A stretch of DNA of 56,781 nt from Candidatus Kaiserbacteria bacterium RIFOXYD1_FULL_47_14. GTDB taxonomy: Bacteria > Patescibacteriota > Minisyncoccia > Phycocordibacterales > Phycocordibacteraceae. Below are positions 1-33,514 of this stretch, piece after piece; within the stretch, counting starts at the first letter, position 1; each line of letters starts with the position of its first letter. Location: NCBI GenBank assembly GCA_001781915.1, contig MFMU01000003.1, forward strand, positions 1,188 to 57,968, read 5' to 3'. Under the pieces are notes generated by a model. The model saw nothing but the letters and a program-made list of their open reading frames with translations, ran no database searches and was not told where the DNA came from. Both the position numbers and the translations under genes were made by a program.

Positions 1-103
1 CATCCTTTTTAATTAACCTATTTGCAAATACGCCACGACCATACTTAGATGTTTTCCTGACTTCGAGGCGTGGATCTATCCATGAAAAACCGCGTTTATT
101 CAT
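1..103 (-). CDS. SET-domain-like protein, N-terminal fragment (continues beyond window)
   Basis: Minus-strand ATG at 101-103. Translation MNKRGFSWIDPRLEVRKTSKYGRGVFANRLIKKD resembles the N-termini of bacterial SET-domain proteins (VRKS..GRGVFA). Only 34 aa are visible. Confidence 0.35.
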   Translation of the reverse strand, partial: MNKRGFSWIDPRLEVRKTSKYGRGVFANRLIKKD

Positions 104-124
104 ACATATATAATACTACAATAA

Positions 125-176
125 GCATAGACATTTACCTGCATTCATACCGCTGATTTTACCACAAACCGGTATT
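125..176. repeat. ~52-bp motif, copy A (shared with 5055..5109)
   Basis: gcataga...tcataccgctgatttta(c/t)cac... has a 17-nt identical core (tcataccgctgatttta) with 5055..5109. It lies next to an HExxH gene in both loci. Confidence 0.6.
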
Positions 177-843
177 AATAATCCTTTGGGCTAGTGAGGT
201 CGTTGAACGCGTCGTATGTTGGTTCAAATCCGTATACCTCTTTGAACAAATCATCAAACTTACCCTTTGTCATGTTTCCACTGGTTTCTTTAATTTTTTG
301 TAGAAGCTCAAGAATTTTCTCCTTGCCGAAGGCGTCGATGAGGACTTTTATTGCAAAAGCGGATTCATCATAAACTTCGGCGCCATCTTTATTGAAAAAC
401 TCAAGGAAGGAAGAAAAGGATTTTGGTTTCTCTTTAAACTGAATATCTCCAGAGACATAACCACTTAACCCTTCATTCAGCCATATGGGAGTACGCACGC
501 CATTTGTACTCGAGTTGAAGAATAGATGACAAAGTTCATGTGCGAGAAGTGCATTATATTCATCGATGGAATATTCCCTCGCAGATTCTGTCTTCATCTT
601 TTCCCTTGAAAGAAGAAATACTTTGCGGCGATCAGACCATCCAACTACCCACGGTTCAGTTTTTTCATTTCGCAGACAATCTATCGTTGTGCGATCTTCA
701 ACAACAAAAACAGAAGGAAGATTATGAATCCAACCGATATTAAAGAAGTTATTGAGTCGCTCCATTGCCGCTTTATATGATTCTTCCAACTCACCTTCAA
801 TTAGCTTGAGAGTTAAGTTAAATAGGTAGGACATAAAATACAT
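175..843 (-). CDS. HExxH zinc-metallopeptidase-like protein (candidate leader peptidase)
   Basis: 222-aa ORF with LAHELCHLFF followed by WLNEGLSGY (gluzincin-like HExxH...E). No signal peptide. TGATATAAT extended -10 just upstream (minus strand, ~850-860). Confidence 0.6.
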   Translation of the reverse strand: MYFMSYLFNLTLKLIEGELEESYKAAMERLNNFFNIGWIHNLPSVFVVEDRTTIDCLRNEKTEPWVVGWSDRRKVFLLSREKMKTESAREYSIDEYNALLAHELCHLFFNSSTNGVRTPIWLNEGLSGYVSGDIQFKEKPKSFSSFLEFFNKDGAEVYDESAFAIKVLIDAFGKEKILELLQKIKETSGNMTKGKFDDLFKEVYGFEPTYDAFNDLTSPKDY

Positions 844-871
844 AAGACATTATATCAAGATTTATAAAAAA

Positions 872-903
872 AGCCCGATGATTAAGATAATAATCACCGG
901 GCT
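872..903 (-). terminator. intrinsic terminator after precursor peptide 1
   Basis: Minus strand AGCCCGGTGATTA-ttatct-TAATCATCGGGCT (13-bp stem, one mismatch) followed by TTTTTTTAT. Confidence 0.6.
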
Positions 904-919
904 CGCACAACAGTCATCT

Positions 920-1084
920 TTAGGTGCTATGACAATGACAGTTGCAACTCGTACCGTCGCAGTTTTGGCACGATTCGCAGTCGCATTGGTCACTCACCAT
1001 GTTTCTATCCTGGTCATGGTAGTGTAGCGACAGGAAACCGTTGCCGGAACCTGACTTCTTTACAGGTGCTTTGTTAGGATCCAA
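920..1084 (-). CDS. Cys-rich RiPP precursor candidate 1 (54 aa from TTG; ORF track gives 920..1117)
   Basis: C-terminus CDCESCQNCDGTSCNCHCHST. AAGGAGGTGA lies 5 nt upstream of TTG(1084), inside the last codons of the rSAM gene. The leader motif NGFLSL matches DGFVSF of peptide 2. Confidence 0.6.
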   Translation of the reverse strand: MDPNKAPVKKSGSGNGFLSLHYHDQDRNMVSDQCDCESCQNCDGTSCNCHCHST

Positions 1085-2429
1085 TTTCTTCACCTCCTTC
1101 CTCCTGTGTGATGGCACCGCCCCTCTTGATTAGAGCCGTGCAGAATCCTTCAACATCCTCAATACCACTCCAATCTATCCTTGGATCATGTGGAACATAT
1201 GTGCATTCCTGATGGAATTGCTCAAGAACACTCAGTCCGGCATGATCAAGGAAGAAACTACCGATACGACCGTTGGTTTCAAGAACAGTGACCGATGCCC
1301 CAAAAGATTCTTTCCGTATCCGATATTTCCTCAACCTGAAGCGATTTCCGTTTCTTTCCTCGCTCAATGGTTTTGTTTGGCTCACTTTCATTTTATGAAT
1401 TCTCATTGCTGCCTCAACACCACCTGCCGTCATGTAAGGATCGGCAGCAGAAAGATCGCCATCGGAATGCATTTTTGATTCCATTCGACAGCCGCCACCG
1501 CACATACTTACCATTTTACAGCTACTGCAAAACTGCGGTACATAGGCGGTGCGTCTCCAATCATCCATGCGTTGCCACACATCGATGATGCTCTCAACTA
1601 AGAGATTTCCATACTGGATATCAAGATGAGAACATGGGCGAACATCTCCGCCACTAGATATTGTACAGGTTGTTACCCCAGCTGGACACCGACGAGATTC
1701 CAGGTCTGAAGCGCCGTCTACGCTCGCCAATGTGCACAATGGATACGGTTCCAGATGCCCACACTTTAGACCAGTTTCTTTGCTCACTGCAACCAATTCA
1801 GTCATGTACTGAATGAACTGCTTTTTAGTGAGAGACATATCAGAAAAGTCAGAGCAATTACCGGGACACCCTACCTTCGTCGCATTGAAGCTTTTCATTC
1901 CGAGAGAAACAACGAGCATAGCAGTGTCCTTGATAACATTCAGATTCATCTGCGATACGACCATGTTTGCGGAAACTCGAATTCCCGCATCTTGCGCAAT
2001 CCCAATACCTGCGAGTGTTCTTTTGAATGCCCCTTTTCGCTGAGCGATAGCATCGTGAACCTCAGCGTTTGGGCCCATCACAGATGTCAGCACACTGTTG
2101 ATGCCGAGATTCTTCAAGGTCATTGCCTTCTGCTTGGTGAGTGTTACAAGATTTGAATTGAGATACGGTTTTATCCCCGACTCATTCGCAAGCTCCAGAC
2201 ACGCAACAAGCACATTGAAGTTTAATAACGGTTCACCACCAGTGAATGTTATTTCGTGAACACCCGCATCTGCAATCATGTGCATGATTTTCCGTCCGTT
2301 TGCCAATGTGAGTGGCACTTCTGTTTTTGATGAAGCGCGCCAGTAGTTGTAACAATGCAGACATTTGTTATTGCATGCAGTTGTCACCTCAAGCTGGCAA
2401 TTAAGCGGTCCTGATAGCGTTCTGTACAT
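1074..2429 (-). CDS. radical SAM/SPASM-domain peptide-modifying enzyme, copy 1
   Basis: N-terminal CNNKCLHC (CxxxCxxC). C-terminal SPASM-type cysteines (CPAGVTTC, RPCSHL, CSSCKMVSMCGGGC). ~100-aa C-terminal extension. Confidence 0.9.
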   Translation of the reverse strand: MYRTLSGPLNCQLEVTTACNNKCLHCYNYWRASSKTEVPLTLANGRKIMHMIADAGVHEITFTGGEPLLNFNVLVACLELANESGIKPYLNSNLVTLTKQKAMTLKNLGINSVLTSVMGPNAEVHDAIAQRKGAFKRTLAGIGIAQDAGIRVSANMVVSQMNLNVIKDTAMLVVSLGMKSFNATKVGCPGNCSDFSDMSLTKKQFIQYMTELVAVSKETGLKCGHLEPYPLCTLASVDGASDLESRRCPAGVTTCTISSGGDVRPCSHLDIQYGNLLVESIIDVWQRMDDWRRTAYVPQFCSSCKMVSMCGGGCRMESKMHSDGDLSAADPYMTAGGVEAAMRIHKMKVSQTKPLSEERNGNRFRLRKYRIRKESFGASVTVLETNGRIGSFFLDHAGLSVLEQFHQECTYVPHDPRIDWSGIEDVEGFCTALIKRGGAITQEEGGEEIGS

Positions 2430-2593
2430 TTCACACCATCCTTTCTATTAGACATTAAAAGATCAAGATATTCGACTCCGAATACCGCCCGTGTGCACTA
2501 TGGCACATCGATGCGAAAAACGCAAATATTTATATCAAAATATATTTCTTTGTTTTGCGTGGATAGGAGTCAAAAAAATAGAAATTATAAAAA

Positions 2594-2615
2594 GCGCCAC
2601 CCTTTCGAGTAGCGC
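2594..2615 (-). terminator. terminator retained from the truncated membrane-protein paralog
   Basis: Minus strand GCGCTAC-tcgaaagg-GTGGCGC + TTTTTAT. The sequence is identical at 7734..7755. Confidence 0.5.
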
Positions 2616-2616
2616 T

Positions 2617-2705
2617 TTATTTCATCAACCAAACCGCCCATTTGTATCCTTGAAACCCAGCCCAGTAAATCCCTAGCCAAACTACTATGCTTATTAGGAC
2701 GGACA
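2617..2705 (-). pseudogene. 3' remnant of a paralog of membrane protein 7757..8284, truncated by IS insertion
   Basis: Nucleotide homology to 7757..7844 (encoding ...WLGIYWAGFQGYKWAVW.MK*) stops abruptly at 2705, where the IS3 terminal TGGACCCC begins. Confidence 0.6.
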
Positions 2706-2763
2706 TGGACCCCAAAATTTGCATACCAACCTTGTATGATTAACCGCGCTAACATACAAGCAT

Positions 2764-3018
2764 ATGAAAAAGCACCGTACCGCTCCCGATGTGAAGGAGC
2801 AGATTATCAACCGCATTAAAAACGATGGCATTTCTGTTGTTGATGCAGCCAAGGACCATGGCATCTCCGAGAACACCATCTATGGCTGGATTGCCAAGAA
2901 GACCGATGGACAGCCGACTCTCTCAGAGATCATCAAACTGAAGCGAGAGAACGCACAGTTGTTTCAGTTGGTCGGCGAGATGACGCTCAAGCTGTCTGAC
3001 ACCCAAAAAAAGAAGTGA
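2764..3018 (+). CDS. IS3-family transposase OrfA (HTH + leucine-zipper-like)
   Basis: 84 aa. HTH segment ISVVDAAKDHGISENTIYGW. Ends at the slippery run. Confidence 0.85.
   Translation: MKKHRTAPDVKEQIINRIKNDGISVVDAAKDHGISENTIYGWIAKKTDGQPTLSEIIKLKRENAQLFQLVGEMTLKLSDTQKKK
3006..3012 (+). promoter_or_regulatory. programmed -1 frameshift heptamer A AAA AAG
   Basis: A_AAA_AAG lies in the orfA frame immediately before the orfA stop, and orfB is open in the -1 frame. This is the canonical IS3 arrangement. Confidence 0.6.
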
Positions 3019-3839
3019 GAGAAGAAACGGCTGTCACCAAAACACTCCTCACCCAAAAGCTCGGTATCTCGCTCCGTTCACTCTGGTACAAACCGAAGAA
3101 GCCAGACAGGGACTGGAAACTCAAATGTCGCATCGAGGAGGTGTTGCGAGAACATCCGTCATACGGATCTCGGAGAATCGCTCTGCATCTGAAAATGAAT
3201 CGGAAGCCGATCAAGCGAGTGATGAACCTGTTCGGCATCAAGGCGTATCGGAGACGAGGCCAGAAGTGGAAGAAAACCAAGAATATCAAGGTGATTTATC
3301 CGAATCTGCTCATGACGGAATGTCCACTGTATGAGAATCACATCTGGGTATCCGACTTCACCCGCCTGCCGTTTCAGGGCAAGGTGGTGTATGTCGCAAC
3401 GGTTGAGGATTTGTTCACTAGAAAGATTGTCGGTCTCTCGGTGTATACCAACCATGCGGTTGGTCTGGTGTTGTCGGCATTCATGAATGCCATTCATGAC
3501 CATGCTCGACCAGTCATCTTCCATTCTGACAACGGCAGTGAATACAATGCCAAGGTATTCATTGAAGCACTCGAGACCGTTGGCGTTATGATCTCTCGCT
3601 CAGCTCCAGGATGCCCGTGGGAGAATGGGTATCAAGAGAGCTTCTATGACAAATTCAAAGTGGATCTTGGTGATCCTGCTAGATTCAAAACGCTCGGCGA
3701 ACTCGTGCTCGCCATCTATCAGACAATCTGGCAGTACAACCACACTAGAATCCACTCGGCATTGAAAATACCGCCTGTGCAATTTGCGCTTCAGGCGGCA
3801 CAGATATATCATTTAGCTAACAAGGAAGGCGTGCAATGA
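3015..3839 (+). CDS. IS3-family transposase OrfB (DDE/rve integrase core)
   Basis: WVSDFT...HSDNGSEY...PWENGYQESF, the typical DDE spacing of rve-type transposases. Confidence 0.85.
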   Translation: MREETAVTKTLLTQKLGISLRSLWYKPKKPDRDWKLKCRIEEVLREHPSYGSRRIALHLKMNRKPIKRVMNLFGIKAYRRRGQKWKKTKNIKVIYPNLLMTECPLYENHIWVSDFTRLPFQGKVVYVATVEDLFTRKIVGLSVYTNHAVGLVLSAFMNAIHDHARPVIFHSDNGSEYNAKVFIEALETVGVMISRSAPGCPWENGYQESFYDKFKVDLGDPARFKTLGELVLAIYQTIWQYNHTRIHSALKIPPVQFALQAAQIYHLANKEGVQ

Positions 3840-3854
3840 AATGGGTCCACGCGC

Positions 3855-4872
3855 ATTCCGTACTCAGTTAGGACACTCGTTAATATGCGATCATGCACAT
3901 CAAAGGAGATCTGACGCGCGCCGAGCGTCTTGAAATCGGCATTTTGTTGTTGGAGAAGGGGTATTCGGGGCGTTCAGTCGCTCGCGCTCTCAATCGCAGC
4001 CCGAACACCATCTCATATGAGATACGGAAGAACAGTACGCTCGGTGCGTATGATCCGCTGAAAGCAGACGCTAAAGCGCGGGTGCGCAAGCACTATCGAA
4101 AATTAGAGTGGTCCAAAATTGAAGCTGATCCAGATCTGAAAAAGTTTGTGGTCAGAAAGCTCAAGAAACACTGGAATCCTGACGAGATAGCCGGATACCT
4201 GAAGCGCACGAAGGCACCGGCGTATGTATCTAAAACTGCCATATACATCTGGTTGTGCACTTCACGCGTGGAAAGATACTGCGAACTCTTGTATTCAAAA
4301 CGAAAACGAGTGAAGAAACAAAAACCAAAAATTAAGAAGACCTTAATCCCAAACCGCATTGGTATTGCAGAGCGTTTCGCAGGTGCCGACAACCGTACGA
4401 GAGGCGGACACTGGGAACGAGATACCATCACCGGGCGCAGAGGAACGACTTGCGGACTTGCCACGGCACAAGAAAGAAAGAGCCGCCTTGTTGTGGCATG
4501 CAAGGTGGAGAGTATGCGATCGATCGAACATCTGGCGGCAGACCGAACGATGTTCGAGGATATGAAAACGCTCTCGGTATCGCGTGACAATGGTATTGAG
4601 AATCGAGAACACGAAGCGCTTGGTATTCCGTCTTTCTTCTGCGATCCATACTCGTCCTGGCAGAAAGGCGGCATCGAAAATGCGAACAAGATGTTGCGTC
4701 GGTACTTCCCGAAAGGCACTGACTTCAGCGAAGTGTCGCAAGGCGAAGTTGATCGGGCTGTTCGCTTGATTAACGAAAAGCCGAGGAGAATCCTCGGCTA
4801 TCGTTCCTCGCTTGCAGAAGCAATGCGATTGGATATTATTAAAAAATCGAGTGTCCTAATTCTGGGGTGAAT
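3855..4872 (+). mobile_element. IS30-family insertion sequence (borders approximate)
   Basis: Perfect 12-bp IR core TTAGGACACTCG (3868..3879) / CGAGTGTCCTAA (4848..4859), with weaker flanking matches. It lies only ~5 bp from the IS3 right end. Confidence 0.7.
3893..4870 (+). CDS. IS30-family transposase
   Basis: N-terminal HTH (RAERLEIGILLEKGYSGRSVARALNRSPNTISYEIRKN). DDE core (WERDTI...SRDNGIEN...SWQKGGIENANKMLRRYFPKG). Confidence 0.85.
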   Translation: MHIKGDLTRAERLEIGILLLEKGYSGRSVARALNRSPNTISYEIRKNSTLGAYDPLKADAKARVRKHYRKLEWSKIEADPDLKKFVVRKLKKHWNPDEIAGYLKRTKAPAYVSKTAIYIWLCTSRVERYCELLYSKRKRVKKQKPKIKKTLIPNRIGIAERFAGADNRTRGGHWERDTITGRRGTTCGLATAQERKSRLVVACKVESMRSIEHLAADRTMFEDMKTLSVSRDNGIENREHEALGIPSFFCDPYSSWQKGGIENANKMLRRYFPKGTDFSEVSQGEVDRAVRLINEKPRRILGYRSSLAEAMRLDIIKKSSVLILG

Positions 4873-5054
4873 TTAGCATTCTTCCGAAGAAGATATCGTA
4901 CTGTATGTGCATGGAAATGCAAGGCGTTGTTGAGTTAACAATATTCAAGAGTGATTACTTCGCCACTCCCTCAATGGCTTTTGGATAATAAATTCATCGG
5001 AAAAAAGGTCAACATTATGAATCGGGCTTGGTTTTACAGAAGCTAAAACTGTGA

Positions 5055-5109
5055 GCATAGATAGTTCCCTACTCTCATACCGCTGATTTTATCACAGAAA
5101 CTGGTGATT
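5055..5109. repeat. ~52-bp motif, copy B (shared with 125..176)
   Basis: Same core tcataccgctgatttta as 125..176. Sits 27 nt upstream of the HExxH gene 5136..6020. Confidence 0.6.
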
Positions 5110-5135
5110 GTGTTATAGTAAGAGACACGGAAGTT

Positions 5136-6020
5136 ATGTATATACCTGATATAAATCTAAAAATTGACTTGGACAAAGAGAGCGATATGTTCGTGAAATT
5201 TCTACACCACGAGAAATTTACGCAGAATAGAGATTCTATTTTACATTGCTATCCCGACTTAAGAATATTGCTAGAAACAGACAATACTGACGAGAGTAAA
5301 ACTATTCGCGCATTTCTTGAAAAAAAATACTCTGAATATAATACCGTTATAAAATCAATAATATCCGATTCCGAAGAAAAGATAGACAAATATGGGAAAA
5401 TTATTTTGGAACAATTATCTTCACTAATGGATTATACTTGGCCGAAGGAACATTCTGGATATTTAGTTATACCTACTATTCTTCCATTTTCCCCGTTTAA
5501 TGAAAACACTCTATATTTTTCAATGGCGAGAAAAATCAAAATGAGCGACAAAAAAGAAGATTTGAATCATGGATTCTTGCCTGTTCTTGCTCACGAAATT
5601 TCCCATTTTATGTTAAGGGATATTTTGGAGCAGGACGGAAAAATAAAATACAGTGATTATGGGTGGACTACTAAACATTTTTTACAGGAAATCCTAGCCC
5701 CTATTCTGATGAACCAAAAGCCACTCAAGAAGATTCTTGACATTGAAGATTATCTAGGGAATCCATATCTAAAACACTTGAATGTTGAAAAGGATTCTGT
5801 TTCAGAAAATATCGTCAATCATTATAATAGGATGTATGCATCCATGAAGTATGACGGCAAAAGATCGTTTGCAGAAATCATAAAAATAATAGCAGGTGAA
5901 TTAGAGAGTGTCAGCACCACGCTAGATGAGAAATTTAAGATGTGGAATACCTATGGGCACAATATTTCCTCAAATGACCTTCTTCTTCAAAAATACAAAA
6001 CTCCTATTCCTATAAAGTAA
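5136..6020 (+). CDS. HExxH-motif protein 2 (putative metallopeptidase)
   Basis: 294-aa AT-rich ORF with LPVLAHEISHFML. Converges on precursor 2. No other family recognised. Confidence 0.5.
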   Translation: MYIPDINLKIDLDKESDMFVKFLHHEKFTQNRDSILHCYPDLRILLETDNTDESKTIRAFLEKKYSEYNTVIKSIISDSEEKIDKYGKIILEQLSSLMDYTWPKEHSGYLVIPTILPFSPFNENTLYFSMARKIKMSDKKEDLNHGFLPVLAHEISHFMLRDILEQDGKIKYSDYGWTTKHFLQEILAPILMNQKPLKKILDIEDYLGNPYLKHLNVEKDSVSENIVNHYNRMYASMKYDGKRSFAEIIKIIAGELESVSTTLDEKFKMWNTYGHNISSNDLLLQKYKTPIPIK

Positions 6021-6021
6021 A

Positions 6022-6045
6022 AGCGCCACGATGAATTGTGGCGCT
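6022..6045. terminator. bidirectional terminator between 5136..6020 and precursor 2
   Basis: AGCGCCAC-gatgaatt-GTGGCGCT. T-tract on the minus strand (TTTTACTTTAT). Confidence 0.55.
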
Positions 6046-6063
6046 CGGCGACGGATATGGTAG

Positions 6064-6201
6064 TCAATTGTTATCGCATTCTTCGCAATTGACATTGCAG
6101 TCATGACAACTGTTATCGCATTCTGATGCAGCGACAAAAGTCCCTGTCTGACTCGCTTCCGCCTGTACGAAGGAAACAAAACCATCATTCGATTTTTGCA
6201 T
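6064..6201 (-). CDS. Cys-rich RiPP precursor candidate 2 (45 aa, not in ORF track)
   Basis: My translation: MQKSNDGFVSFVQAEASQTGTFVAASECDNSCHDCNVNCEECDNN*. AAAGGGGGTGAT Shine-Dalgarno lies 4 nt before the ATG. Sits 43 nt downstream of the rSAM-2 stop, with a terminator after it. Confidence 0.65.
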   Translation of the reverse strand: MQKSNDGFVSFVQAEASQTGTFVAASECDNSCHDCNVNCEECDNN

Positions 6202-6244
6202 AATATCACCCCCTTTCTAGAGAAGAAGTTTAGCATGCAGTTCG

Positions 6245-7546
6245 CTATTTCGCAATAGCGATTCCTCGTCGAACAATACCATCGACAAAACTGTCTGAGT
6301 CAATGGTGCCCCATTGAATCCGTTTGTCTCCTGGTGAATATCGAATTCCTACTTCGAGTTGCTTTAAGAGTTCGAAACCAGCATCGTTCAAGAATGCCCG
6401 AGATTTCCCTGCGAGGACTGTAATCCCGAAAGGTTCACGCCGGTAGCGATAAGATTTTATTTCAAAATCTTTTATCGGTTTTTTGCTAGGCATTTTTTCG
6501 CGGTGCTTTTGAAGCGAAGAGAAACTTCTTTCAGCATCTTCGGGCGAGCTGTAAGGATCCGCACTGGAAAGATCTCCATTGCGCATTTTCGCTTCCATAC
6601 GACAACCACCGCCACACACTTGTGAAAGTGTACAACTCTTACAGATTACTGGTAGAAAAGCTCCATTTCTCCAAGTTTCCATGCGAACCCAGATCTTTTT
6701 CAGGTCTTCCATGAACAAGTTCCCGTATGACTCATCGAGATGAGAACAGGGTCTGACTTCACCGTCACTGGCGATAGTCATCGTGGTCACACCGGCATAG
6801 CATCTCCTGCCAATAAACGAATAGTGATAATCCAGATCACCAATTCCACACAGCGGATATCCCTCAAGGGCATCAATTGCAAGATCGAATTCTTCACCGC
6901 TTTCTCGTAAATCTCGTAGATATTGCCGGAATTCACTTTTGGACAGAGAAAATTGTGAAAAATCGGAGCAATTTCCTGGACATCCAGCCTTAGTGGCTGA
7001 AAACATCTTTACGCCAATAGAGGATACAATTCTTGCTGTTTCCTTGATATTGGAAAGATTCATTTTCGAAACCACCATATTAACTGCGACGCGAATTCCT
7101 TCCTCCTGAGCTATCTGACTGTTTTCCACGACTTTCTTGAATGATCCTTTTGATTGAGCAATCTTGTCGTGTATCTCCGGCAAGGAACCCATTAATGAAG
7201 TCAGGATTTGTTTTACCCCTAGGGAACGCAGTTCACGAGCACGAGTTCTGGTTAATAGAACCAGATTTGAGTTCAGGGAGACACCCAAATTCGCATTTTG
7301 TGCCTCCTTGAGGCAATGGAGTAGAGCATCGTACTTTATCAATGGTTCGCCACCAGTGATTATGATGTCGAACACCTTTGCATCAGCCATCTTCTCTACA
7401 ATTTCGCTAACAGTGGATTTATTGAGGGAAGTGTTGACTCGCTTGAGATCCTTTCGCCAAAAATTGTAACAGTGAGAACAATTATGGTTACAGGAAGTCG
7501 TGAGTTCTACTTGATAGTTTATTGGCGCCGAAAGCGTTTGATACAT
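6245..7546 (-). CDS. radical SAM/SPASM-domain peptide-modifying enzyme, copy 2
   Basis: CNHNCSHC (CxxxCxxC). SPASM cysteines (CYAGVTTM..RPCSHL..CKSCTLSQVCGGGC). Roughly half the residues are identical to copy 1 by eye. Confidence 0.9.
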   Translation of the reverse strand: MYQTLSAPINYQVELTTSCNHNCSHCYNFWRKDLKRVNTSLNKSTVSEIVEKMADAKVFDIIITGGEPLIKYDALLHCLKEAQNANLGVSLNSNLVLLTRTRARELRSLGVKQILTSLMGSLPEIHDKIAQSKGSFKKVVENSQIAQEEGIRVAVNMVVSKMNLSNIKETARIVSSIGVKMFSATKAGCPGNCSDFSQFSLSKSEFRQYLRDLRESGEEFDLAIDALEGYPLCGIGDLDYHYSFIGRRCYAGVTTMTIASDGEVRPCSHLDESYGNLFMEDLKKIWVRMETWRNGAFLPVICKSCTLSQVCGGGCRMEAKMRNGDLSSADPYSSPEDAERSFSSLQKHREKMPSKKPIKDFEIKSYRYRREPFGITVLAGKSRAFLNDAGFELLKQLEVGIRYSPGDKRIQWGTIDSDSFVDGIVRRGIAIAK

Positions 7547-7733
7547 GATACACCTCCTTTCCTATTTGACATTAAAAGATCAAGATATTCGACTTTGAAT
7601 ACCTCCAAGTGGGATTATGGCACATCAATACAAAGAATACAAGTTCTAGCGCAGTACGCCCAACTTGTTTATATCGAAATATATTTCTTCGTTTTGCGCG
7701 GATAGGAATCCCAAAAAATAGAAATTATAAAAA

Positions 7734-7755
7734 GCGCCACCCTTTCGAGTAGCGC
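7734..7755 (-). terminator. intrinsic terminator of 7757..8284
   Basis: Same hairpin plus T-tract as 2594..2615. Confidence 0.5.
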
Positions 7756-7756
7756 T

Positions 7757-8284
7757 TTATTTCATCATCCAAACCGCCCATTTATATCCCTGGAACCCAG
7801 CCCAGTAAATCCCGAGCCAAACTACCATGCTTATCAGGACTGACGGCAAGGTAATCCGGAGGAATGTTACCAGGTATCCTTCTTCTTTCTTACGAATGAG
7901 CAGTGTTACATAATCCGGATCGATGTAGAACCAGCTACCAATCCAGAAGATGAGTCGCTTGCTCATAAGAATTCGCCGTACCAACCGCTTGAACCACTGA
8001 TTTTTCAGAAGCACTGCATGTTCAAGTTGGCGGAATCCTTCTATTCCAATTGGATCCCACCCTTTCTTGATAGCTATATCATTACCAAGAACGACGAGGA
8101 TACAAGCGGCCAGATAGATTGGTGTAACAATGACAAACGCTTTTGTAATGCCATTGATTCCATGTTCTGGGTCCATTGTCAAGAACCAGATAATGAGAGC
8201 ATCGACAAAACGAGTCAAAATAGTAATAACTCTCTCCGAAAGAATGGCGTGTAGGAGAGAGGTGCTCGGCGCACGCTTTTCCAC
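7757..8284 (-). CDS. multi-pass membrane protein, unknown family
   Basis: 175 aa with several hydrophobic segments (ITILTRFVDALIIWFL, FVIVTPIYLAACILVVL, VLISMVVWLGIYWAGF). Lies upstream of rSAM-2 on the same strand. Confidence 0.6.
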   Translation of the reverse strand: MEKRAPSTSLLHAILSERVITILTRFVDALIIWFLTMDPEHGINGITKAFVIVTPIYLAACILVVLGNDIAIKKGWDPIGIEGFRQLEHAVLLKNQWFKRLVRRILMSKRLIFWIGSWFYIDPDYVTLLIRKKEEGYLVTFLRITLPSVLISMVVWLGIYWAGFQGYKWAVWMMK

Positions 8285-8417
8285 GAGGAAACCCTCCTAT
8301 AAACTGTGTTTACAAGGACACTTCTAAACCTAGAATTAACTAGGAGTTGAAAGAACTTTTAACCCGTTTACTATGCTAGCATATTGATGACAGTATGTCA
8401 ATACTCCAGTACAAGGT

Positions 8418-9506
8418 CTAATTACTGGCCCAAATGAAGGAATTTTTCTCTCCGAAGCTCGGTACGAGTACATCGTTTCTGTTGAAGTTCCCGAATATTT
8501 TTTTGAACTTATTCTCGATTATTTTCGCGGCGTCTATATATTTCGGGATTACGGCAGCAGCTCCTGCCTGCGCACTTATCCACCCATTCGGTTTTAATAT
8601 CTCCTTTGACAATCTGAAAATCTCTTCATAAAACTCGCCCATCTTGTTTTTAGCTCCTCGACTACCCATCGGATTATCGGTCAAATCGGAAATAATCCCA
8701 TCCACCTTTTCTCCATTTTTATTTGCATACATCTTTAGATAATTCATAGCATCTCCTATATTGAGAGTTACATTTGGATGAGAGAATACTTTTTGATTTA
8801 GATATTTTTTTGCGAAAAATACTACCTCGGCATCGAGATCAATTATGGTGATTTTCAAATCTGGATTTATTTTCAGCGCCATTTCTGCCACATATCCATC
8901 TCCCCCGCCGAGTATGATGATATTTCTGTCTGTTGGTTTGAGCGGAGCTAGAATTGCTTTGTCATATCGTTCATGATCAAATTCGGAAGTTTGTACTAAT
9001 CCGTCTATAACCAAGCTTTTCCCGAACTTCTTTAGGTCTGCGACAACAATATCTTGAAAAGCAGAATGTATCTCTGCCAATTTTTTTATGACTCTAGTTC
9101 GACTCGTCTCCCCTGTTCTATATATAGGGGATTCTAGATACTCTAGAATATTATATCCGCGTTTAATTTTCTGAATTTGCTTTTTTGTGGACTCAACCGC
9201 TTTCACCAGAAAGTCAGCAGCTTTAAGTGTATTCTCATCATCTGAACAACTGAAAACATCGCAAGCGACATAATTATATTCAGGCCAACTATGAATTGAT
9301 ATGTGAGAAGTTGAAAGAAGTAAAAATCCTGTTATGCCCTGCGGTTTAAATTCATGGAAATGAGTGTGGAGTATCTCCATACTGGCGGCTTGAGCCGCTC
9401 CGATTAAAGTATCATTCCAAAACTTTTTTGAGTTTATCTGATGAGGATCGCAACCTGACAAATCAATTAAAATATGCAATCCTTTTGTCTTTCTTAAATG
9501 ACTCAT
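8418..9506 (-). CDS. fusion of S-adenosylmethionine decarboxylase (SpeH/SpeD-type, pyruvoyl) and spermidine synthase (SpeE-like)
   Basis: N-terminal HEFKPQGITGFLLLSTSHISIHSWPE..CDVFSC matches the small bacterial AdoMetDC processing region. C-terminal IILGGGDGYVAEMALK, IIDLDAEVV and ISDLTD match the aminopropyltransferase fold. Confidence 0.8.
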   Translation of the reverse strand: MSHLRKTKGLHILIDLSGCDPHQINSKKFWNDTLIGAAQAASMEILHTHFHEFKPQGITGFLLLSTSHISIHSWPEYNYVACDVFSCSDDENTLKAADFLVKAVESTKKQIQKIKRGYNILEYLESPIYRTGETSRTRVIKKLAEIHSAFQDIVVADLKKFGKSLVIDGLVQTSEFDHERYDKAILAPLKPTDRNIIILGGGDGYVAEMALKINPDLKITIIDLDAEVVFFAKKYLNQKVFSHPNVTLNIGDAMNYLKMYANKNGEKVDGIISDLTDNPMGSRGAKNKMGEFYEEIFRLSKEILKPNGWISAQAGAAAVIPKYIDAAKIIENKFKKIFGNFNRNDVLVPSFGEKNSFIWASN

Positions 9507-9931
9507 AAAATGGGCTTGGTGCTGGTAGCTATTGGTTTTATTACTTCTACTTGAAAATCTTTAGGATTTGTACAGGACTCATTATCTTGTATCGTATCTT
9601 CTGAACAAAATATAATTTTGCATCCTTTTTCATCAGAGTTGCAAATGAGCGGTTTGCATTCTTCTAGAGCTCCGTTACAAACTGAGATGTTAGAGGCCTT
9701 TTTTATTATTTTTGCATAATAATCTGTTCCGCATTCCCCCGCATCGCAGGATACAAAACAACTTTCCGTCTGAGGGTCGCATTCAGTAGTGCTATTTACG
9801 ATAAAATCACGCTCTATAAAAAAGACCTGATAGTCCCAATATGCCGCAACAGCAAAGATACCTATAAAACCAAAAATAAGATATTTAGATTTCTTGTCCA
9901 TATGCATATTATAACCTATTTGTGAAGACAC
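9503..9931 (-). CDS. membrane-anchored Cys-rich protein, unknown function
   Basis: N-terminal TM (YLIFGFIGIFAVAAYW) followed by ~13 Cys. Its stop overlaps the start of 8418..9506 (ATGA). The true start may be an internal Met. Confidence 0.5.
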   Translation of the reverse strand: MSSQIGYNMHMDKKSKYLIFGFIGIFAVAAYWDYQVFFIERDFIVNSTTECDPQTESCFVSCDAGECGTDYYAKIIKKASNISVCNGALEECKPLICNSDEKGCKIIFCSEDTIQDNESCTNPKDFQVEVIKPIATSTKPIL

Positions 9932-10044
9932 TAACTTAAACTAAGTTTTGATCCTGTATTCGACCCTTCATACCACCTGTATCTACTATAGCACACCTCT
10001 CCAAAAATTGCAAGCCCTACGCGAAATGCCTTTGGGTTTGATTC

Positions 10045-10120
10045 TGGAGCCGTCGGACAGGATTGAACTGTCGACCTCGTGCTTACCATGCACGTGCTCT
10101 ACCAACTGAGCTACAACGGC
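10045..10120 (-). tRNA. tRNA-Thr (anticodon GGT), CCA encoded
   Basis: The reverse complement GCCGTTGTAGCTCAGTTGGTAGAGCACGTGCATGGTAAGCACGAGGTCGACAGTTCAATCCTGTCCGACGGCTCCA folds as a cloverleaf. Anticodon loop is A-T-GGT-A-A. Confidence 0.9.
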
Positions 10121-10171
10121 AATTTCTTATCGCACTTCTGCATACTAGCGAACTTTCTCCTTTCTTTCAAT

Positions 10172-10504
10172 TTACGAATACAACAAAATACCGACGACAA
10201 CGACACTGTTAAAGAGAATCATAAACGCATTTGCGAATAATATATGGATGTCTTTATGGAGTAAGCCATATATCGTCCACAGTATGTTGAGCAGAATAAA
10301 GAGAGACCAAGTAAGCAGCGAGAGGCCTGCGCTATTTTTTGTTGTATAGATTTCCAGAATCTGCGGCAGGAGTACGATCGGAGCGAAGATGCCGACGCCA
10401 TACATAAGATAATCAAAATAGCGCTTCCAGATGCCAACAGCAGGAAAGGGCTCGAGACCTTTCATAATACGCGCACGCTTGCGCAGATGATGAAAACCAA
10501 GCAT
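10172..10504 (-). CDS. PQ-loop / SemiSWEET-like 3-TM transporter
   Basis: 110 aa with three hydrophobic helices and a PQ motif (VLLPQILEIYTTKNSAGLSLLTW). Confidence 0.6.
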   Translation of the reverse strand: MLGFHHLRKRARIMKGLEPFPAVGIWKRYFDYLMYGVGIFAPIVLLPQILEIYTTKNSAGLSLLTWSLFILLNILWTIYGLLHKDIHILFANAFMILFNSVVVVGILLYS

Positions 10505-10518
10505 GCTATAGTTATAGC

Positions 10519-10872
10519 ATGGAAGGTCTCACTAATTATGAAAATGAGGAGCGTCCGTGGGGAAAATTCGAACGCTTTACGCTGAATGAACAGACGACGG
10601 TAAAAATAATGACGCTTACTGCCGGCGAAGAATTAAGTTTGCAGACCCACGAGCATCGCGACGAATTCGGGCGCGTTCTTAAGGGTTTCGGCACAGTCAG
10701 CATCGGAGATAAGGAAACTGAAGTGCGCGATGGCGACGCGTTTTTCATTCCACGGAATACTGCGCATCGCGCGATCGCTGATTCCGCAGGGCTCGTCTAT
10801 CTCGAAATAGCATTCGGCGACTTTGACGAAAATGACATAACGCGTCTCGAGGATAAGTACGAGCGCGTGTAA
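10519..10872 (+). CDS. cupin-domain protein (mannose-6-phosphate isomerase type II-like)
   Basis: RPWGKFERF...LSLQTHEHRDEFGRVLKG...FIPRNTAHR, the cupin His/Glu metal motifs. Confidence 0.7.
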   Translation: MEGLTNYENEERPWGKFERFTLNEQTTVKIMTLTAGEELSLQTHEHRDEFGRVLKGFGTVSIGDKETEVRDGDAFFIPRNTAHRAIADSAGLVYLEIAFGDFDENDITRLEDKYERV

Positions 10873-10896
10873 GAAATAAATAGGAAATAAAAAAAC

Positions 10897-10918
10897 CCCG
10901 CGCTTATGAAAGCGCGGG
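10897..10918. terminator. bidirectional terminator
   Basis: CCCGCGCTT-atga-AAGCGCGGG with an A-run before it, between convergent genes. Confidence 0.7.
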
Positions 10919-10942
10919 ATCATCGAAAAGAGGACAGAAAAT

Positions 10943-11443
10943 TCAGACCTCGCGAACGGCGAGAAAATCTGTGAAAACAGCCCATTCGCGTTCCCATGAT
11001 GAGATGCCGAGATTCCAGAAGGAAACGCATTCGCCCATACAGGGAACAAAGCGTTCCCATCCGATAACGGCGATCGACCCGAGGCTGACCACACAGCGTT
11101 TGCTGTGGCATCCTTCCGGTTTGAAAGTTCCGAGAGCGAACATATGCTCGACCTCGGCAGGTCGCCACGGCACTCCCCCATTCACACGCTCAATTCCTTT
11201 GAGCGCTATGGTTGACGACATTGGGAAACGCCATTTAAAATACCTACCCTCGAAACAAATGATCCCGTTCCTTCCCTTTCTGTTGATCGGGAAATGTTCC
11301 TCCGTAATACGCTCGTTCTGAAACAGAACATACTGACTGGAGGATTTCATCATCTCGAACGACTTACTGTAGTCGACCGAGAAATGGAAAATTTCGGGAG
11401 CAGCAACTTTCCTGACCTGCGGCATTTCCGTTGTCTCTCTCAT
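10943..11443 (-). CDS. hypothetical protein
   Basis: The 166-aa ORF is the only one here that does not overlap the cupin gene. No recognised motif. Confidence 0.45.
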   Translation of the reverse strand: MRETTEMPQVRKVAAPEIFHFSVDYSKSFEMMKSSSQYVLFQNERITEEHFPINRKGRNGIICFEGRYFKWRFPMSSTIALKGIERVNGGVPWRPAEVEHMFALGTFKPEGCHSKRCVVSLGSIAVIGWERFVPCMGECVSFWNLGISSWEREWAVFTDFLAVREV

Positions 11444-11550
11444 CCGAGACCTCTCTTCTTTTGTTTTTTCAATAACCGCACATAACTTTTATGCGCGGGG
11501 TACAAATTTTCTGATTTCTATCATACACGACACACTTTATTTGTCAAATG

Positions 11551-11625
11551 CGCGGTCGATGGGATTTGAACCCACGTTCTTCGCCGTGACAGGGCGACGC
11601 TTTTGACCAGCTAAGCTACGACCGC
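11551..11625 (-). tRNA. tRNA-Asp (anticodon GTC)
   Basis: GCGGTCGTAGCTTAGCTGGTCAAAAGCGTCGCCCTGTCACGGCGAAGAACGTGGGTTCAAATCCCATCGACCGCG. Anticodon loop C-T-GTC-A-C. No CCA encoded. Confidence 0.9.
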
Positions 11626-12296
11626 ATTTTCGCAAATTCTCTAAATCTCTTCCTCTTCTTTTCAAGAAAAAGACCTTCGGGAACAGGAACCTTATGATTA
11701 TACATAAAATCACCAAGTTTCAAAGAATTATTGACGCTGTAGGTGAGACGATAATAGTTCCCTTTTCCTTTTGAGAGAACTCCTTTGTGTATATTAAACA
11801 TCTCCAATTGTTCTCGTATCGCACTTAAAAATTCATAAGAACATGAGGTGAATACCGTTCGAATGGTGAACAATCTTGATTTTCTATCTTTGTGCACATA
11901 CCCGAGCCAAACATTCCCATCTCCATCAAAATAACCCCTTACAAAATGCGAAAAATACTTTTTTGGAACATGAGGAATTACAAGACTCTTCGTTTTATTG
12001 GGCGTAAATCCTAAGTGGAGAAGATCATTGCACATTTCTTTGCTTCCTATTTGCAAACGATACATTGTTTGTTCATTTATTTTTCTTCTGCTCCTCACAC
12101 TTATTTTGTGCTCGGACTGGATAGCTTTTTTGATTCCTTCAAGAATATTTTTATCCGTTATTTGAATGTTCCAAAAATGGGCGCCTCTTTTATTGAGAGT
12201 CATATACCCATCTGCTGCAAAAAATCCAAGAATATAGGCCATTTCAGAAGTCCATTTCTTGAAGAAATCTTTATTTATCGCGCGATACATCGGCAT
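11616..12296 (-). CDS. LAGLIDADG homing endonuclease (two-motif, free-standing)
   Basis: Two LAGLIDADG motifs: YILGFFAADGY and FVRGYFDGDGNV. Its last 10 nt overlap the 5' end of tRNA-Asp. Confidence 0.85.
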   Translation of the reverse strand: MPMYRAINKDFFKKWTSEMAYILGFFAADGYMTLNKRGAHFWNIQITDKNILEGIKKAIQSEHKISVRSRRKINEQTMYRLQIGSKEMCNDLLHLGFTPNKTKSLVIPHVPKKYFSHFVRGYFDGDGNVWLGYVHKDRKSRLFTIRTVFTSCSYEFLSAIREQLEMFNIHKGVLSKGKGNYYRLTYSVNNSLKLGDFMYNHKVPVPEGLFLEKKRKRFREFAKMRS

Positions 12297-12372: not shown

Positions 12373-12446
12373 TGCTGGCGGAAGGACTTGCACCTTCGAC
12401 CTTGGGTTTATGAGTCCCATGCTCTAACTACCTGAGCTACGCCAGC
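12373..12446 (-). tRNA. tRNA with CAT anticodon (Met, or Ile2 if lysidinylated); atypical T-loop
   Basis: GCTGGCGTAGCTCAGGTAGTTAGAGCATGGGACTCATAAACCCAAGGTCGAAGGTGCAAGTCCTTCCGCCAGCA. G1-C72, so it is not an initiator. The T-loop reads TGCAAGT (G at position 55). Confidence 0.75.
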
Positions 12447-26584: not shown

Positions 26585-26937
26585 TACCTCCTACTCGAAA
26601 GCCGGAACTGCGCAAACAAAGCAATCGTGCCGCCGAGATTGTCGCGCATGAAGCGGCGCAATTCATCGCACGCGAAGCAAGCAACGAATCACTTATCACC
26701 GTCATCCGCGCACAAAGCGTCGCCCACGGAGATCGTATGATGGTTTTCGTCAGCGTCTTCCCGGTCGAGAAAACGCGCGCCGCGCTCGCCTTCCTCGAGC
26801 ACCAGCGCGAAGCATTCTCGGATTATTTAAAAGTGCATGCGCGCCTTCGCCTTCCGCGCATCGACTTCCTTCCTGACAACGGCGAAGAGAGCGGCCAATT
26901 AGTAAACGAACTATCGAGAGGCCAGGGCGGGAATTGA
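26581..26937 (+). CDS. rbfA: ribosome-binding factor A
   Basis: Small basic protein overlapping the infB stop (ATGA). RbfA-like N-terminal segment. Its 3' end overlaps the antisense tRNA-Cys by 19 nt. Confidence 0.65.
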   Translation: MIPPTRKPELRKQSNRAAEIVAHEAAQFIAREASNESLITVIRAQSVAHGDRMMVFVSVFPVEKTRAALAFLEHQREAFSDYLKVHARLRLPRIDFLPDNGEESGQLVNELSRGQGGN

Positions 26938-26990
26938 ACCCGCGCATAGCGCTTTTGCAGAGCGCCGTGTTACCACTTCACCACCTGGCC
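26919..26990 (-). tRNA. tRNA-Cys (anticodon GCA)
   Basis: GGCCAGGTGGTGAAGTGGTAACACGGCGCTCTGCAAAAGCGCTATGCGCGGGTTCAATTCCCGCCCTGGCCT. Discriminator U. Confidence 0.85.
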
Positions 26991-27032
26991 CATAGTTAGA
27001 GAATAACAGAAATGTTACTATCATCAAAAGAT

Positions 27033-27122
27033 GCCGAGGTGGCGGAATAGGTAGACGCACAGGACTTAAAATCCTGAGAGGGCCTAAAAACCTTCATGTG
27101 GGTTCGATTCCCACCCTCGGTA
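27033..27122 (+). tRNA. tRNA-Leu (anticodon TAA), long variable arm
   Basis: GCCGAGGTGGCGGAATAGGTAGACGCACAGGACTTAAAATCCTG...GTGGGTTCGATTCCCACCCTCGGTA. Confidence 0.9.
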
Positions 27123-27130
27123 CTAGAAAA

Positions 27131-27257
27131 ATTTGTGGTCACAAATAATTCACTTGCCGTCGCAAGTGAATTTTCGCGACCCCGGCTCGCGGTTTTGCCT
27201 GCTGGCAAAACATCGCTGCGCCTCGCACAAGTAAAGAAACAGCATACTCTGTTTCTT
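27131..27257. other. hairpin-dense spacer between convergent tRNA genes
   Basis: Consecutive perfect stems: ATTTGT/ACAAAT, AATTCACTTGC/GCAAGTGAATT, CGCGA/TCGCG, GTTTTGCC/GGCAAAAC, AAGAAACAG/CTGTTTCTT. Confidence 0.7.
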
Positions 27258-27262
27258 TCATG

Positions 27263-27335
27263 TGCGCCCAGCAGGGCTCGGACCTGCGACCTTATCCTTA
27301 AGAGGGATCTGCTCTACCAACTGAGCTATGGGCGC
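27263..27335 (-). tRNA. tRNA-Lys (anticodon CTT); atypical T-loop
   Basis: GCGCCCATAGCTCAGTTGGTAGAGCAGATCCCTCTTAAGGATAAGGTCGCAGGTCCGAGCCCTGCTGGGCGCA. The T-loop reads TCCGAGC (C at position 55). Confidence 0.75.
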
Positions 27336-27463
27336 TGAAGCGAGGATAAACAAATGTGAGTCCTATTACATTTGTTTACTCCGAGTGAAGCGCTCATATC
27401 GAGTCATCGAAGATATGGGCGCCTAAAGAAAAATATAGCAGAACATAGTATGATTTGAAAGTC

Positions 27464-27492
27464 GCCCTTCTGCGCGTAAAGCTTCGAAGGGC
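27464..27492 (+). repeat. conserved hairpin immediately 5' of tRNA-Leu(TAG) (paralog of 12450..12478)
   Basis: GCCCTTCTGCGCGTAAAGCTTCGAAGGGC, 3 nt upstream of the tRNA 5' end. Confidence 0.7.
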
Positions 27493-27495
27493 ACG

Positions 27496-27577
27496 GCTGG
27501 GATGGCGAAATTGGTAGACGCACGAGCCCTAGGAGCTCGCGGGGCAACCCATGGAGGTTCGAGTCCTCTTCCCAGCA
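27496..27577 (+). tRNA. tRNA-Leu (anticodon TAG), long variable arm
   Basis: GCTGGGATGGCGAAATTGGTAGACGCACGAGCCCTAGGAGCTCG...GGAGGTTCGAGTCCTCTTCCCAGCA. The anticodon loop reads CCTAGGA (C at position 33). Confidence 0.8.
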
Positions 27578-31405: not shown

Positions 31406-31681
31406 CTATGATGGCGACAATATCTTCTGGATTGTCCCTAAATCGAACGCGCCCATTGCGACATTAATGATGCCGTATGCGCCGAAGATGATGACAAGAC
31501 CTATAAGACCCCAGAAGATTGCCATGCGGCCTTCCTCGCGTTTTGTTTTATCCCCTGCATTTGCAACAAACTCAAATACGCCCCATAGAAACACGACGAA
31601 TGCTACCGCAGACAAAAGCAAGATCAATGGATTGATAATCTGCGCGGTAACCTTTGCAACGAATGAGTAGAGAGCGGGCAT
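31406..31681 (-). CDS. TrbC/VirB2-like two-TM small protein (T4SS-pilin-like), paralog 1
   Basis: Helix, charged loop (GDKTKREEGR), then WGLIGLVIIFGAYGIINV. Confidence 0.6.
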   Translation of the reverse strand: MPALYSFVAKVTAQIINPLILLLSAVAFVVFLWGVFEFVANAGDKTKREEGRMAIFWGLIGLVIIFGAYGIINVAMGAFDLGTIQKILSPS

Positions 31682-31697
31682 TACTGATTACTAAGCG

Positions 31698-33505: not shown

Positions 33506-33514
33506 AATATTTTA

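Follow-up and report, generated by a model that had tools for sequence, protein, structure and literature searches.

A Cys/Asp-rich peptide conserved beside a radical SAM/SPASM enzyme in Candidatus Kaiserbacteria and related genomes is very probably a RiPP precursor

We analyzed a stretch of 56,781 bp (45.6% GC) from a Candidatus Kaiserbacteria contig, referred to below as the window, and in particular a 45-residue Cys-rich peptide (peptide 2) that is encoded on its minus strand at 6064..6201. This peptide is very probably the precursor of a RiPP, a peptide made by the ribosome and modified after translation. Its reading frame is conserved in orthologous loci, it combines a putative leader carrying a family-wide motif with a variable Cys/Asp-rich core, and Cys-rich small open reading frames (ORFs) recur directly behind the genes of related radical S-adenosylmethionine (SAM)/SPASM enzymes, mostly in Patescibacteria, also known as the candidate phyla radiation (CPR). 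In our full model, to which we assign a probability of about 65%, the enzyme is guided by the leader to crosslink the Cys/acidic core, and the leader is then removed. The window holds a second, paralogous cassette (cassette 1) with its own precursor, peptide 1.

Peptide 2 is included, with the translation MQKSNDGFVSFVQAEASQTGTFVAASECDNSCHDCNVNCEECDNN*, in a mechanical ORF list with a 30-aa threshold, in exact agreement with the coordinates and the peptide proposed in the initial annotation of the window. The translation also bears out the spacing of its five Cys residues, C-x3-C-x2-C-x3-C-x2-C. These residues lie in the putative core (about residues 27-45, ECDNSCHDCNVNCEECDNN), which follows a putative leader of about residues 1-26 with the motif DGFVSF. 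The ribosome-binding site GGGGGTGA that had been read in front of the ORF is present as the Shine-Dalgarno sequence AAAGGGGGTGAT at 6216..6205 on the minus strand, with 7 nt from its G-run to the ATG (6201..6199). A hairpin resembling an intrinsic terminator (6046..6021, minus strand) begins 17 nt past the stop codon of peptide 2 and ends the enzyme-peptide transcription unit. It has a 9-bp stem with six GC pairs, followed by a T-rich but interrupted tail (TTTTACTTTATA). Both the terminator scan and the folding energy (-17.4 kcal/mol, z = -2.95, with only one of 200 shuffles folding better) support the terminator that had been proposed here. An 88-aa ORF in another frame (5970..6236, minus strand), which the initial annotation also mentioned, does exist; it is not preceded by a ribosome-binding site and passes through the terminator hairpin. 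The description of the 45-aa ORF as hidden did not hold, because 15 public contigs of groundwater metagenomes already have the same protein among their called genes, and it was hidden solely from the ORF track used at the time.

To this single sequence we added four orthologous loci (L007, L087, L088 and L089), whose enzymes are 65-73% identical to the 433-aa enzyme of the window and whose peptides read MPKDDGFVSFVQIEKNQTENLTAVQNCDCYDCDYNCEECDSK, MSADNDFVSLVQTEAGHVEVPAAVQECENCDCYDCNVNCEECDSK, MQDDGFVSFVQTGASQTEIFSIAQECENCDCYDCDTNCEECDNR and METMKSDDGFVSFVRLVTAPEVVIATAQDSCENCDCYDCNVNCEECDST. The 45-aa frame, the ATG start and a GGAGG-type ribosome-binding site are kept in all four loci, the latter at the same place (AAAGGAGGTGAT or AAAGGAGGTAAT), and the NCEECD tail is identical throughout. 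Pairwise codon differences among the orthologues number 108, 121 and 211 at codon positions 1, 2 and 3, respectively, and 101 of the codon changes are synonymous. Stop codons interrupt the 88-aa frame in L007, L087 and L088. A broken 45-aa frame next to a conserved 88-aa frame had been named beforehand as the pattern that would speak against the peptide; since the orthologues keep the former frame and three of them have stops in the latter, they display no such pattern. The 45-codon frame is a genuine conserved coding gene under selection, and we are highly confident that peptide 2 is translated, either as a precursor for the enzyme or as a partner of it.

The peptide and the enzyme are also linked across genomes. 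A pattern scan with one genome per species yielded 231 loci encoding relatives of the enzyme, and the best 80 were kept. Most of these 80 loci belong to Patescibacteria (Paceibacterota, Parcubacteria, Microgenomates, WWE3 and others), and some are labelled as Bdellovibrionota, Omnitrophica or DPANN archaea. Linkage was counted in the 75 loci that have a full-length enzyme and enough downstream sequence, with a precursor defined as a small ORF that has at least four Cys in its last 30 residues and starts between -60 and +400 nt from the enzyme stop. Such an ORF directly follows the enzyme gene on the same strand in 50 of the 75 loci, compared with 5 of 75 on the opposite strand and 43 of 1158 control windows (3.7%) elsewhere in the same loci. 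This association of enzyme and peptide far exceeds chance. Displaced precursors occur upstream of the enzyme (L024 and L030), about 440 nt downstream of it (L016) or past the gene of an HExxH protein (L033, L035, L042, L044 and L053), which brings the count to approximately 50-58 of the 75 loci. Only near the most distant enzyme relatives, which share 30-36% identity and are largely non-CPR, was a precursor not found. Paralogous cassettes within one genome are frequent, as in the window and in the pairs L025/L026, L058/L066 and L054/L076. When the peptide alignment (45 sequences) was searched against 5.8 billion proteins, the query cluster was the sole result; a short Cys-rich profile is too uninformative at that database size, and the size of the family was therefore estimated from the enzyme-anchored loci.

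An alignment of 45 precursors gives the consensus M-x4-GFxSL-x(~15)-CDCxDCDxxCxxxCD. Of the 45 precursors, 24 have the leader motif G[FIYL]x[ST][LIFM], compared with 0.9% of 6,544 control segments; the motif lies a median of 21 residues ahead of the first core Cys. The motif that had been recognized in both peptides of the window (DGFVSF in peptide 2, NGFLSL in peptide 1) is thus a property of the whole family; the likeness drawn between their junctions (S-E-C-D and D-Q-C-D) is not conserved in the alignment. The cores comprise about 23 residues, of which 25% are Cys and 19% Asp; the median number of Cys is six, and the net charge averages -5.4. Successive core Cys are mostly spaced by 1-3 residues, and 65% of the Cys have Asp, Glu or Asn as the next residue. 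Asp alone occupies the +1 position in 45% of cases and the +4 position in 24%, compared with a background of 19%. One CX3D motif (C39..D43) and one CX3N motif are present in peptide 2, and its close orthologues L087-L089 carry three CX3D motifs (CENCDCYDCNVNCEECD). The Cys columns are nearly invariant in the alignment, while the cores differ strongly between genomes and between paralogues. No family peptide matched any precursor model of Pfam or NCBIfam, those for SCIFF included. Taken together, the family alignment, the orthologues and the linkage support the proposal of the initial annotation that peptide 2 is a RiPP precursor whose leader is conserved and whose Cys-rich core varies.

Some loci depart from this pattern. 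In the Levybacteria-type loci L033 (5032..5346), L035 (5026..5310), L042 (5032..5355) and L053 (5032..5313), where the precursor lies past the HExxH gene, the leader motif is kept as PQFVSIL and the core is rich in Pro and Cys (e.g., CISPVPPLPPSCVDRPPPPPPGPCYGSPPPCYGGR) instead of Cys and Asp. Judged from these sequences, one enzyme family seems to serve very different core chemistry in the Levybacteria-type loci. On two contigs labelled as archaeon or Nanoarchaeota (L063 and L071), the enzyme gene is followed by similar peptides (..EDIPKEE..., core DNCDCDCNCDCDATCDFYD) without the GFxSL leader motif. Further enzyme copies are found on contigs labelled as Bdellovibrionota (L047, L050, L054 and L076) and Omnitrophica (L062).

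The enzyme gene of cassette 2 (6245..7546, minus strand) encodes a radical SAM/SPASM protein of 433 aa, maturase 2, with matches to Pfam PF04055 (8.6e-23) and PF13186 (28.9 bits, cutoff 21.5). Its paralogue in cassette 1, maturase 1 (1074..2429, minus strand), has 451 aa and is 46% identical. The CxxxCxxC motif of maturase 2 (C19/C23/C26) is invariant in 32 family sequences, as are C233, C249, C267, C302, C305, C311 and C315 of the SPASM region. Of the SPASM pattern CX9-15GX4C ... CX2CX5CX3C ... C, the blocks C249-x12-G-x4-C267 and C302-x2-C305-x5-C311-x3-C315 are present, with C233 as an extra invariant Cys. A residue-level alignment to PqqE shows the CX2CX5CX3C block intact, but in place of the DPAC of PqqE the family has D330-P331, both invariant, and then Tyr or Ser. 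With the last SPASM Cys replaced in this way, one auxiliary cluster may be coordinated differently, possibly through a non-Cys ligand or with an open coordination site; Asp330 or a substrate thiolate might complete it. Neither enzyme of the window reached any curated NCBIfam cutoff. The best sub-threshold scores were those of GeoRSP, AhbD and NirJ2 (116-140 bits, compared with cutoffs of 400-500), and the PqqE, MftC, GeoRSP, NirJ2 and AhbD models together gave 88-140 bits, compared with cutoffs of 265-500. PqqE was the best single-sequence match of the enzyme in the PDB. An AlphaFold2 (AF2) model of maturase 2 had a predicted local distance difference test (pLDDT) score of 91.7, and the nearest solved structures to it were SPASM enzymes that modify peptides (SuiB, anSME, SkfB, TigE, PqqE and ChlB), with identities of 13-23%.

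Beyond the SPASM region, the family shares a C-terminal extension of about 80 residues with invariant R369, E371, F373, G374 and F420. In maturase 2 this domain spans residues 356-433 (6248..6481, minus strand), and its AF2 domain model (pLDDT 97) predicts the fold of a RiPP recognition element (RRE). The top Foldseek matches of the domain were nearly all RREs, namely those of McbB, the MccB peptide clamp, the PbtF RRE, PqqD, ThcOx and TbiB1, with TM scores of 0.56-0.68, probabilities of 0.94-1.0 and E-values of 8e-3 to 0.5. On the strength of these models, we conclude that the enzyme carries a C-terminal RRE fold.

When the ORFs flanking the enzyme genes were clustered, the sole recurrent neighbors were HExxH proteins. 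The motif is present in 52 of 74 ORFs of 150-330 aa located at most 700 nt downstream of the enzyme, compared with 26 of 228 elsewhere, and 52 of 82 loci have an HExxH ORF within that distance. The HExxH proteins form two groups. The Peptidase_MA_2-like group includes the 222-aa protein encoded downstream of cassette 1 (175..843, minus strand), which has the motif LAHELCHLFF and matches Pfam PF13485 (3.1e-9, 37.3 bits, cutoff 32.4). Its neighbor cluster is the largest, with 31 loci, in most of which the gene lies directly downstream on the same strand. The second group consists of four BLAST clusters joined by hhalign at probabilities of 96-99% and has H153, E154, H157 and E185 as invariant residues, the HExxH...E signature looked for in gluzincin-type metallopeptidases. 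It includes (in cluster 1) the 294-aa protein with the motif LAHEISHFML that is encoded convergently with cassette 2 (5136..6020, plus strand). Profile searches of the second group against Pfam and PDB sequences yielded nothing significant, and the 5136..6020 product is assigned to an uncharacterized zincin-like family. Given their motif and position, the HExxH proteins of both cassettes are naturally read as candidate leader peptidases.

In the mechanism that we propose, peptide 2 and the enzyme gene 6245..7546 would be cotranscribed from a promoter in an upstream region that is duplicated in the window, and the transcript would end at the hairpin 6046..6021. The N-terminal ~26 residues of the peptide would serve as the leader, whose G-F-x-S/T-(L/F) motif may be bound by the predicted C-terminal RRE domain of the enzyme. 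Chemistry of the 5'-deoxyadenosyl radical, together with the auxiliary Fe-S clusters, would then crosslink the C-terminal core of ~19 residues, which is rich in Cys, Asp, Asn and Glu. By analogy with ranthipeptides, the likeliest products would be thioethers between Cys sulfur and side-chain carbons, each formed with the loss of 2 Da. The leader may be cut off by the adjacent HExxH protein, i.e., the product of 5136..6020 for cassette 2 and that of 175..843 for cassette 1, and the end product would be a small, highly acidic, polycyclic peptide. Thioethers from Cys sulfur to Asp, Glu or Asn are favored because the Cys positions are the conserved feature of the core, because these three residues are the main companions of Cys, and because PapB forms such links at CX0D to CX6D.

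Comparison with known systems places this cassette functionally near SCIFF, ranthipeptide and other SPASM-RiPP systems, and it is a member of none of the curated families tested. The resemblance to SCIFF peptides that the initial annotation had drawn from the length of 45 residues holds for size and Cys count; it does not extend to the SCIFF models, which neither precursor nor maturase matches. Like SCIFF (CteA/CteB, thermocellin; TIGR03973/TIGR03974), the system has a precursor of ~45 aa with 5-6 C-terminal Cys encoded beside a radical SAM/SPASM gene, is widely conserved within its lineage and has no dedicated exporter; about six Cys in ~45 residues, compared with five in 45 for peptide 2, is a likeness and does not define membership in SCIFF. 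The SCIFF precursor profile TIGR03973 matched none of the 45 family peptides at E≤1 and did not match peptide 2, and for both enzymes of the window the SCIFF maturase model fell outside the top 25 NCBIfam families. In contrast to SCIFF, the RRE of the window enzyme is C-terminal and not N-terminal, the enzyme gene precedes the peptide, an HExxH partner is present, and the lineage is CPR and not Clostridia.

Among the nearest known systems is also that of QhpD, a radical SAM/SPASM enzyme that forms several Cys-to-Asp/Glu thioethers in QhpC, a small cell-associated polypeptide rich in Cys and acidic residues. QhpC is the gamma-subunit of quinohemoprotein amine dehydrogenase, carries a tryptophylquinone cofactor and is encoded in the qhp operon. 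Genes of the qhp type are absent here, and the QhpD model was not among the top NCBIfam matches of the window enzymes. PapB, the maturase of freyrasin, links Cys sulfur in CX3D motifs to the C-beta of Asp or the C-gamma of Glu, and it accepts spacings from CX0D to CX6D (PMC9413430). With PapA/PapB (ranthipeptide, NF047865) the system shares a core rich in Cys and Asp, and the orthologues L087-L089 of peptide 2 carry three CX3D motifs; it differs from PapA/PapB in that the adjacent C-D dipeptide dominates, the Cys spacing is 1-3, the leader motif is another one and the PapB cutoff is missed. PqqE/PqqD, SuiB, SkfB, anSME, TigE and ChlB are alike in overall predicted fold, cluster-binding motifs and a PqqD-like RRE fold that may hold the peptide here too, but they differ in that the RRE is here a C-terminal fusion, DPY/S takes the place of the final SPASM Cys and the substrates are unrelated. 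GeoRSP (TIGR04303) and NirJ2/AhbD are the highest-scoring curated profiles for the window enzymes; unlike these enzymes, those families have no C-terminal RRE-like extension and no such Cys/Asp-rich peptides. Taken as a whole, the system is set apart by its leader motif, an RRE at the C-terminus, the absence of the last SPASM Cys, an HExxH partner, a gene order of enzyme before peptide with frequent overlap of start and stop codons, a CPR-centered distribution and paralogous cassettes that often share a genome.

Several observations weigh against leader-guided thioether formation as proposed here. Asp at +4 from Cys is barely enriched, and the strong signal is instead the adjacent C-D dipeptide. 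The final Cys of the canonical SPASM motif is absent throughout the family. The PapB model gave 73.5 bits for maturase 2 and 59.1 for maturase 1 against a cutoff of 340, SkfB gave 75.6 against 300, StsB 76.6 against 625 and AlbA 72.8 against 850, so that the enzyme is no closer to thioether formers than to enzymes of the PqqE/AhbD type. The RRE assignment derives from a predicted structure with modest Foldseek E-values, and no PqqD/RRE match appeared when ten C-terminal domains were scanned against Pfam at E≤10. In addition, a conserved exporter was not found in the clustered flanks, and the analysis covered genes and predicted structures.

As the scores of thioether formers lie far under their cutoffs, the chemistry could be something else. 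In this alternative, which we consider possible although distinctly less probable than our model, the peptide is a RiPP precursor that undergoes another modification: sactionine alpha-carbon thioethers, C-C crosslinks, epimerization, oxidative decarboxylation at acidic side chains, or turnover into a cofactor, redox-active or metal-binding, that the cell retains, as it does pyrroloquinoline quinone (PQQ) and mycofactocin. The top sub-threshold profiles (GeoRSP, AhbD, NirJ2, PqqE and the MftC type) are not those of thioether formers, and the best single-sequence PDB match, the missing exporter and the absence, by inspection, of obvious signal peptides from both HExxH proteins point in the same direction; wide retention in tiny genomes would likewise fit a housekeeping role. 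However, Cys, at 25%, is the dominant and position-conserved core residue, which is a hallmark of thioether-forming SPASM systems. A cofactor product is further opposed by the absence of the conserved Glu/Tyr or Val-Tyr termini of PQQ and mycofactocin precursors from the peptides, and by the great variation of the cores between genomes and paralogues, which would be atypical for a cofactor.

Much less probable is a role of the peptide as a partner and not a substrate, i.e., as a small Cys/Asp-rich metal- or Fe-S-binding protein, metallothionein-like or chaperone-like, that is co-expressed with the enzyme. The dense CxC/CxxC spacing and the acidic residues do resemble metal-binding peptides, but a leader motif set apart from the Cys cluster, an RRE-fold domain and an HExxH neighbor are features of leader-guided modification, and the core sequences are hypervariable. 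That the 45-aa ORF is a chance frame, with the 88-aa ORF 5970..6236 or no gene at all being real, could be argued from the frequency of short ORFs by chance and from an initial ORF track that held only the 88-aa frame, but is refuted by the synonymous excess and recurrence (~50-58 of 75 loci) of the conserved 45-aa frame and by the stops, missing ribosome-binding site and crossed terminator of the longer one.

Leader-guided crosslinking of the Cys/acidic core thus stays our preferred reading. A bolder extension of it, which we put forward tentatively and consider unlikely in its entirety, is that the cassette represents a previously undescribed three-part RiPP class made up of a SPASM enzyme with a C-terminal RRE, a Cys/Asp-rich precursor with a 'GFxSL' leader and an HExxH peptidase. 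Such a class would typify ultra-small lineages with an episymbiotic or predatory way of life (CPR/Patescibacteria, plus copies that bear DPANN, Bdellovibrionota and Omnitrophota labels). Its crosslinks would be unlike those of known ranthipeptides and sactipeptides, for example vicinal Cys-Asp links or an acidic polycyclic scaffold that binds metal or host, and its product might play a role in symbiont-host or symbiont-symbiont interaction.

The genomes of CPR/Patescibacteria are tiny, and genome mining often finds that they contain few biosynthetic gene clusters or none at all. According to one long-read study, its Patescibacteria metagenome-assembled genomes had none (PMC11613949), and graspetides were the only CPR RiPPs that we found discussed in the searchable literature (PMC8939145). 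A three-gene peptide-modification cassette in at least 231 species-level genomes, often as two paralogous cassettes with different cores, points by its breadth and its paralogues to a widely retained and unstudied peptide product in organisms attached to other cells. While a SPASM enzyme with a Cys-rich peptide is a familiar paradigm, which limits the surprise, its breadth in CPR genomes raises the interest. Radical SAM chemistry not seen before on Cys/Asp-rich cores, a novel pairing of leader and C-terminal RRE and a family of leader peptidases that is likewise new could come to light in the system, and since the unit is small (~2.5 kb) with clearly delimited parts, it is directly testable. 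A description of the system was not found in the openly searchable literature with the core motifs NCEECD and CDCYDC or with CPR combined with radical SAM/SPASM/ranthipeptide; subscription journals may hold one. Literature matches to 'CYDCD' were cydCD gene names and unrelated.

The precursor of cassette 1, peptide 1 (920..1084, minus strand; MDPNKAPVKKSGSGNGFLSLHYHDQDRNMVSDQCDCESCQNCDGTSCNCHCHST), has 54 aa when read from a TTG start at 1084..1082, carries NGFLSL and DQCD, and overlaps the stop of maturase 1 by 11 nt (1084..1074). Frame, leader and core are conserved in the orthologues L090 and L091, and L091 has an ATG at the position of the TTG in the window, behind the same GGAGGTGA. Peptide 1 is not among the genes publicly called on the same contigs (L001-L005). 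Precursors of this type, with a TTG start and an overlap with the enzyme stop, are systematically missed or mis-called in public annotation. A terminator-like hairpin with a 14-bp stem followed by TTTTTAT (871..904, minus strand) lies behind the peptide, and the two cassettes of the window share one layout. In L091 (2903..3076), a 57-aa ORF on the opposite strand has been called instead of the orthologous precursor. Another 45-aa ORF (8336..8473, minus strand) was considered as peptide 1 and rejected, its translation being unrelated. A third cassette was looked for within the window and not found.

About 315 bp upstream of both enzyme genes are duplicated (7530..7844 and 2413..2704), with 82% identity over 318 nt and a core of 132 nt at 94%. 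The block takes in the final 28 codons of a gene for a 175-aa membrane protein, a terminator hairpin that is identical in both copies (2618..2591 and 7758..7731) and the 5' leader; in front of maturase 2, the 5' leader/promoter region, the upstream terminator and the tail of the membrane-protein gene occupy 7547..7844 on the minus strand. Because the upstream blocks are 82% alike while the enzymes are only 46% identical, the sequences suggest a recent copying event that placed the regulatory region in front of an older paralogue, beside insertion sequence (IS) elements, with the end of the copied block next to the IS3 element. Rfam searches (E≤1 over 1..12000 and the gathering threshold over the whole window) returned tRNAs only and no riboswitch or leader RNA. 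The 175-aa membrane protein (7757..8284) was rejected as a component of the cassette: homologous loci show no recurrence of it, and the duplication upstream of cassette 1 covers just its final 28 codons.

Between the two cassettes lie an IS3 element, an IS30 element and the 294-aa HExxH gene. The IS3-family element (2764..3839, plus strand) comprises an 84-aa helix-turn-helix ORF (2764..3018) and a 274-aa transposase (3015..3839), and the IS30-family transposase is encoded at 3893..4870 on the plus strand. The IS3 transposase has been called as split ORFs of 150 and 69 aa in the public contigs L001-L004, which come from the same population, and is intact, with 274 aa, in L005 and in the window.

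Elsewhere in the window, a single 362-aa ORF at 8418..9506 (minus strand) combines two domains, a SAM decarboxylase (residues 7-117) and a spermidine synthase (residues 135-362), in one fusion. In tblastn, about six small, hydrophobic paralogues with 39-60% identity to the 175-aa ORF 32158..32685 form a tandem array at 31460..34245 (minus strand). Four tRNA genes are located on both strands within ~660 bp at 26919..27577, and three further tRNAs lie near the cassettes at 10048..10120, 11551..11625 and 12373..12446. The second of these abuts or overlaps the 3' end of a 226-aa ORF (11616..12296), which has a weak LAGLIDADG_3 match in public annotation.

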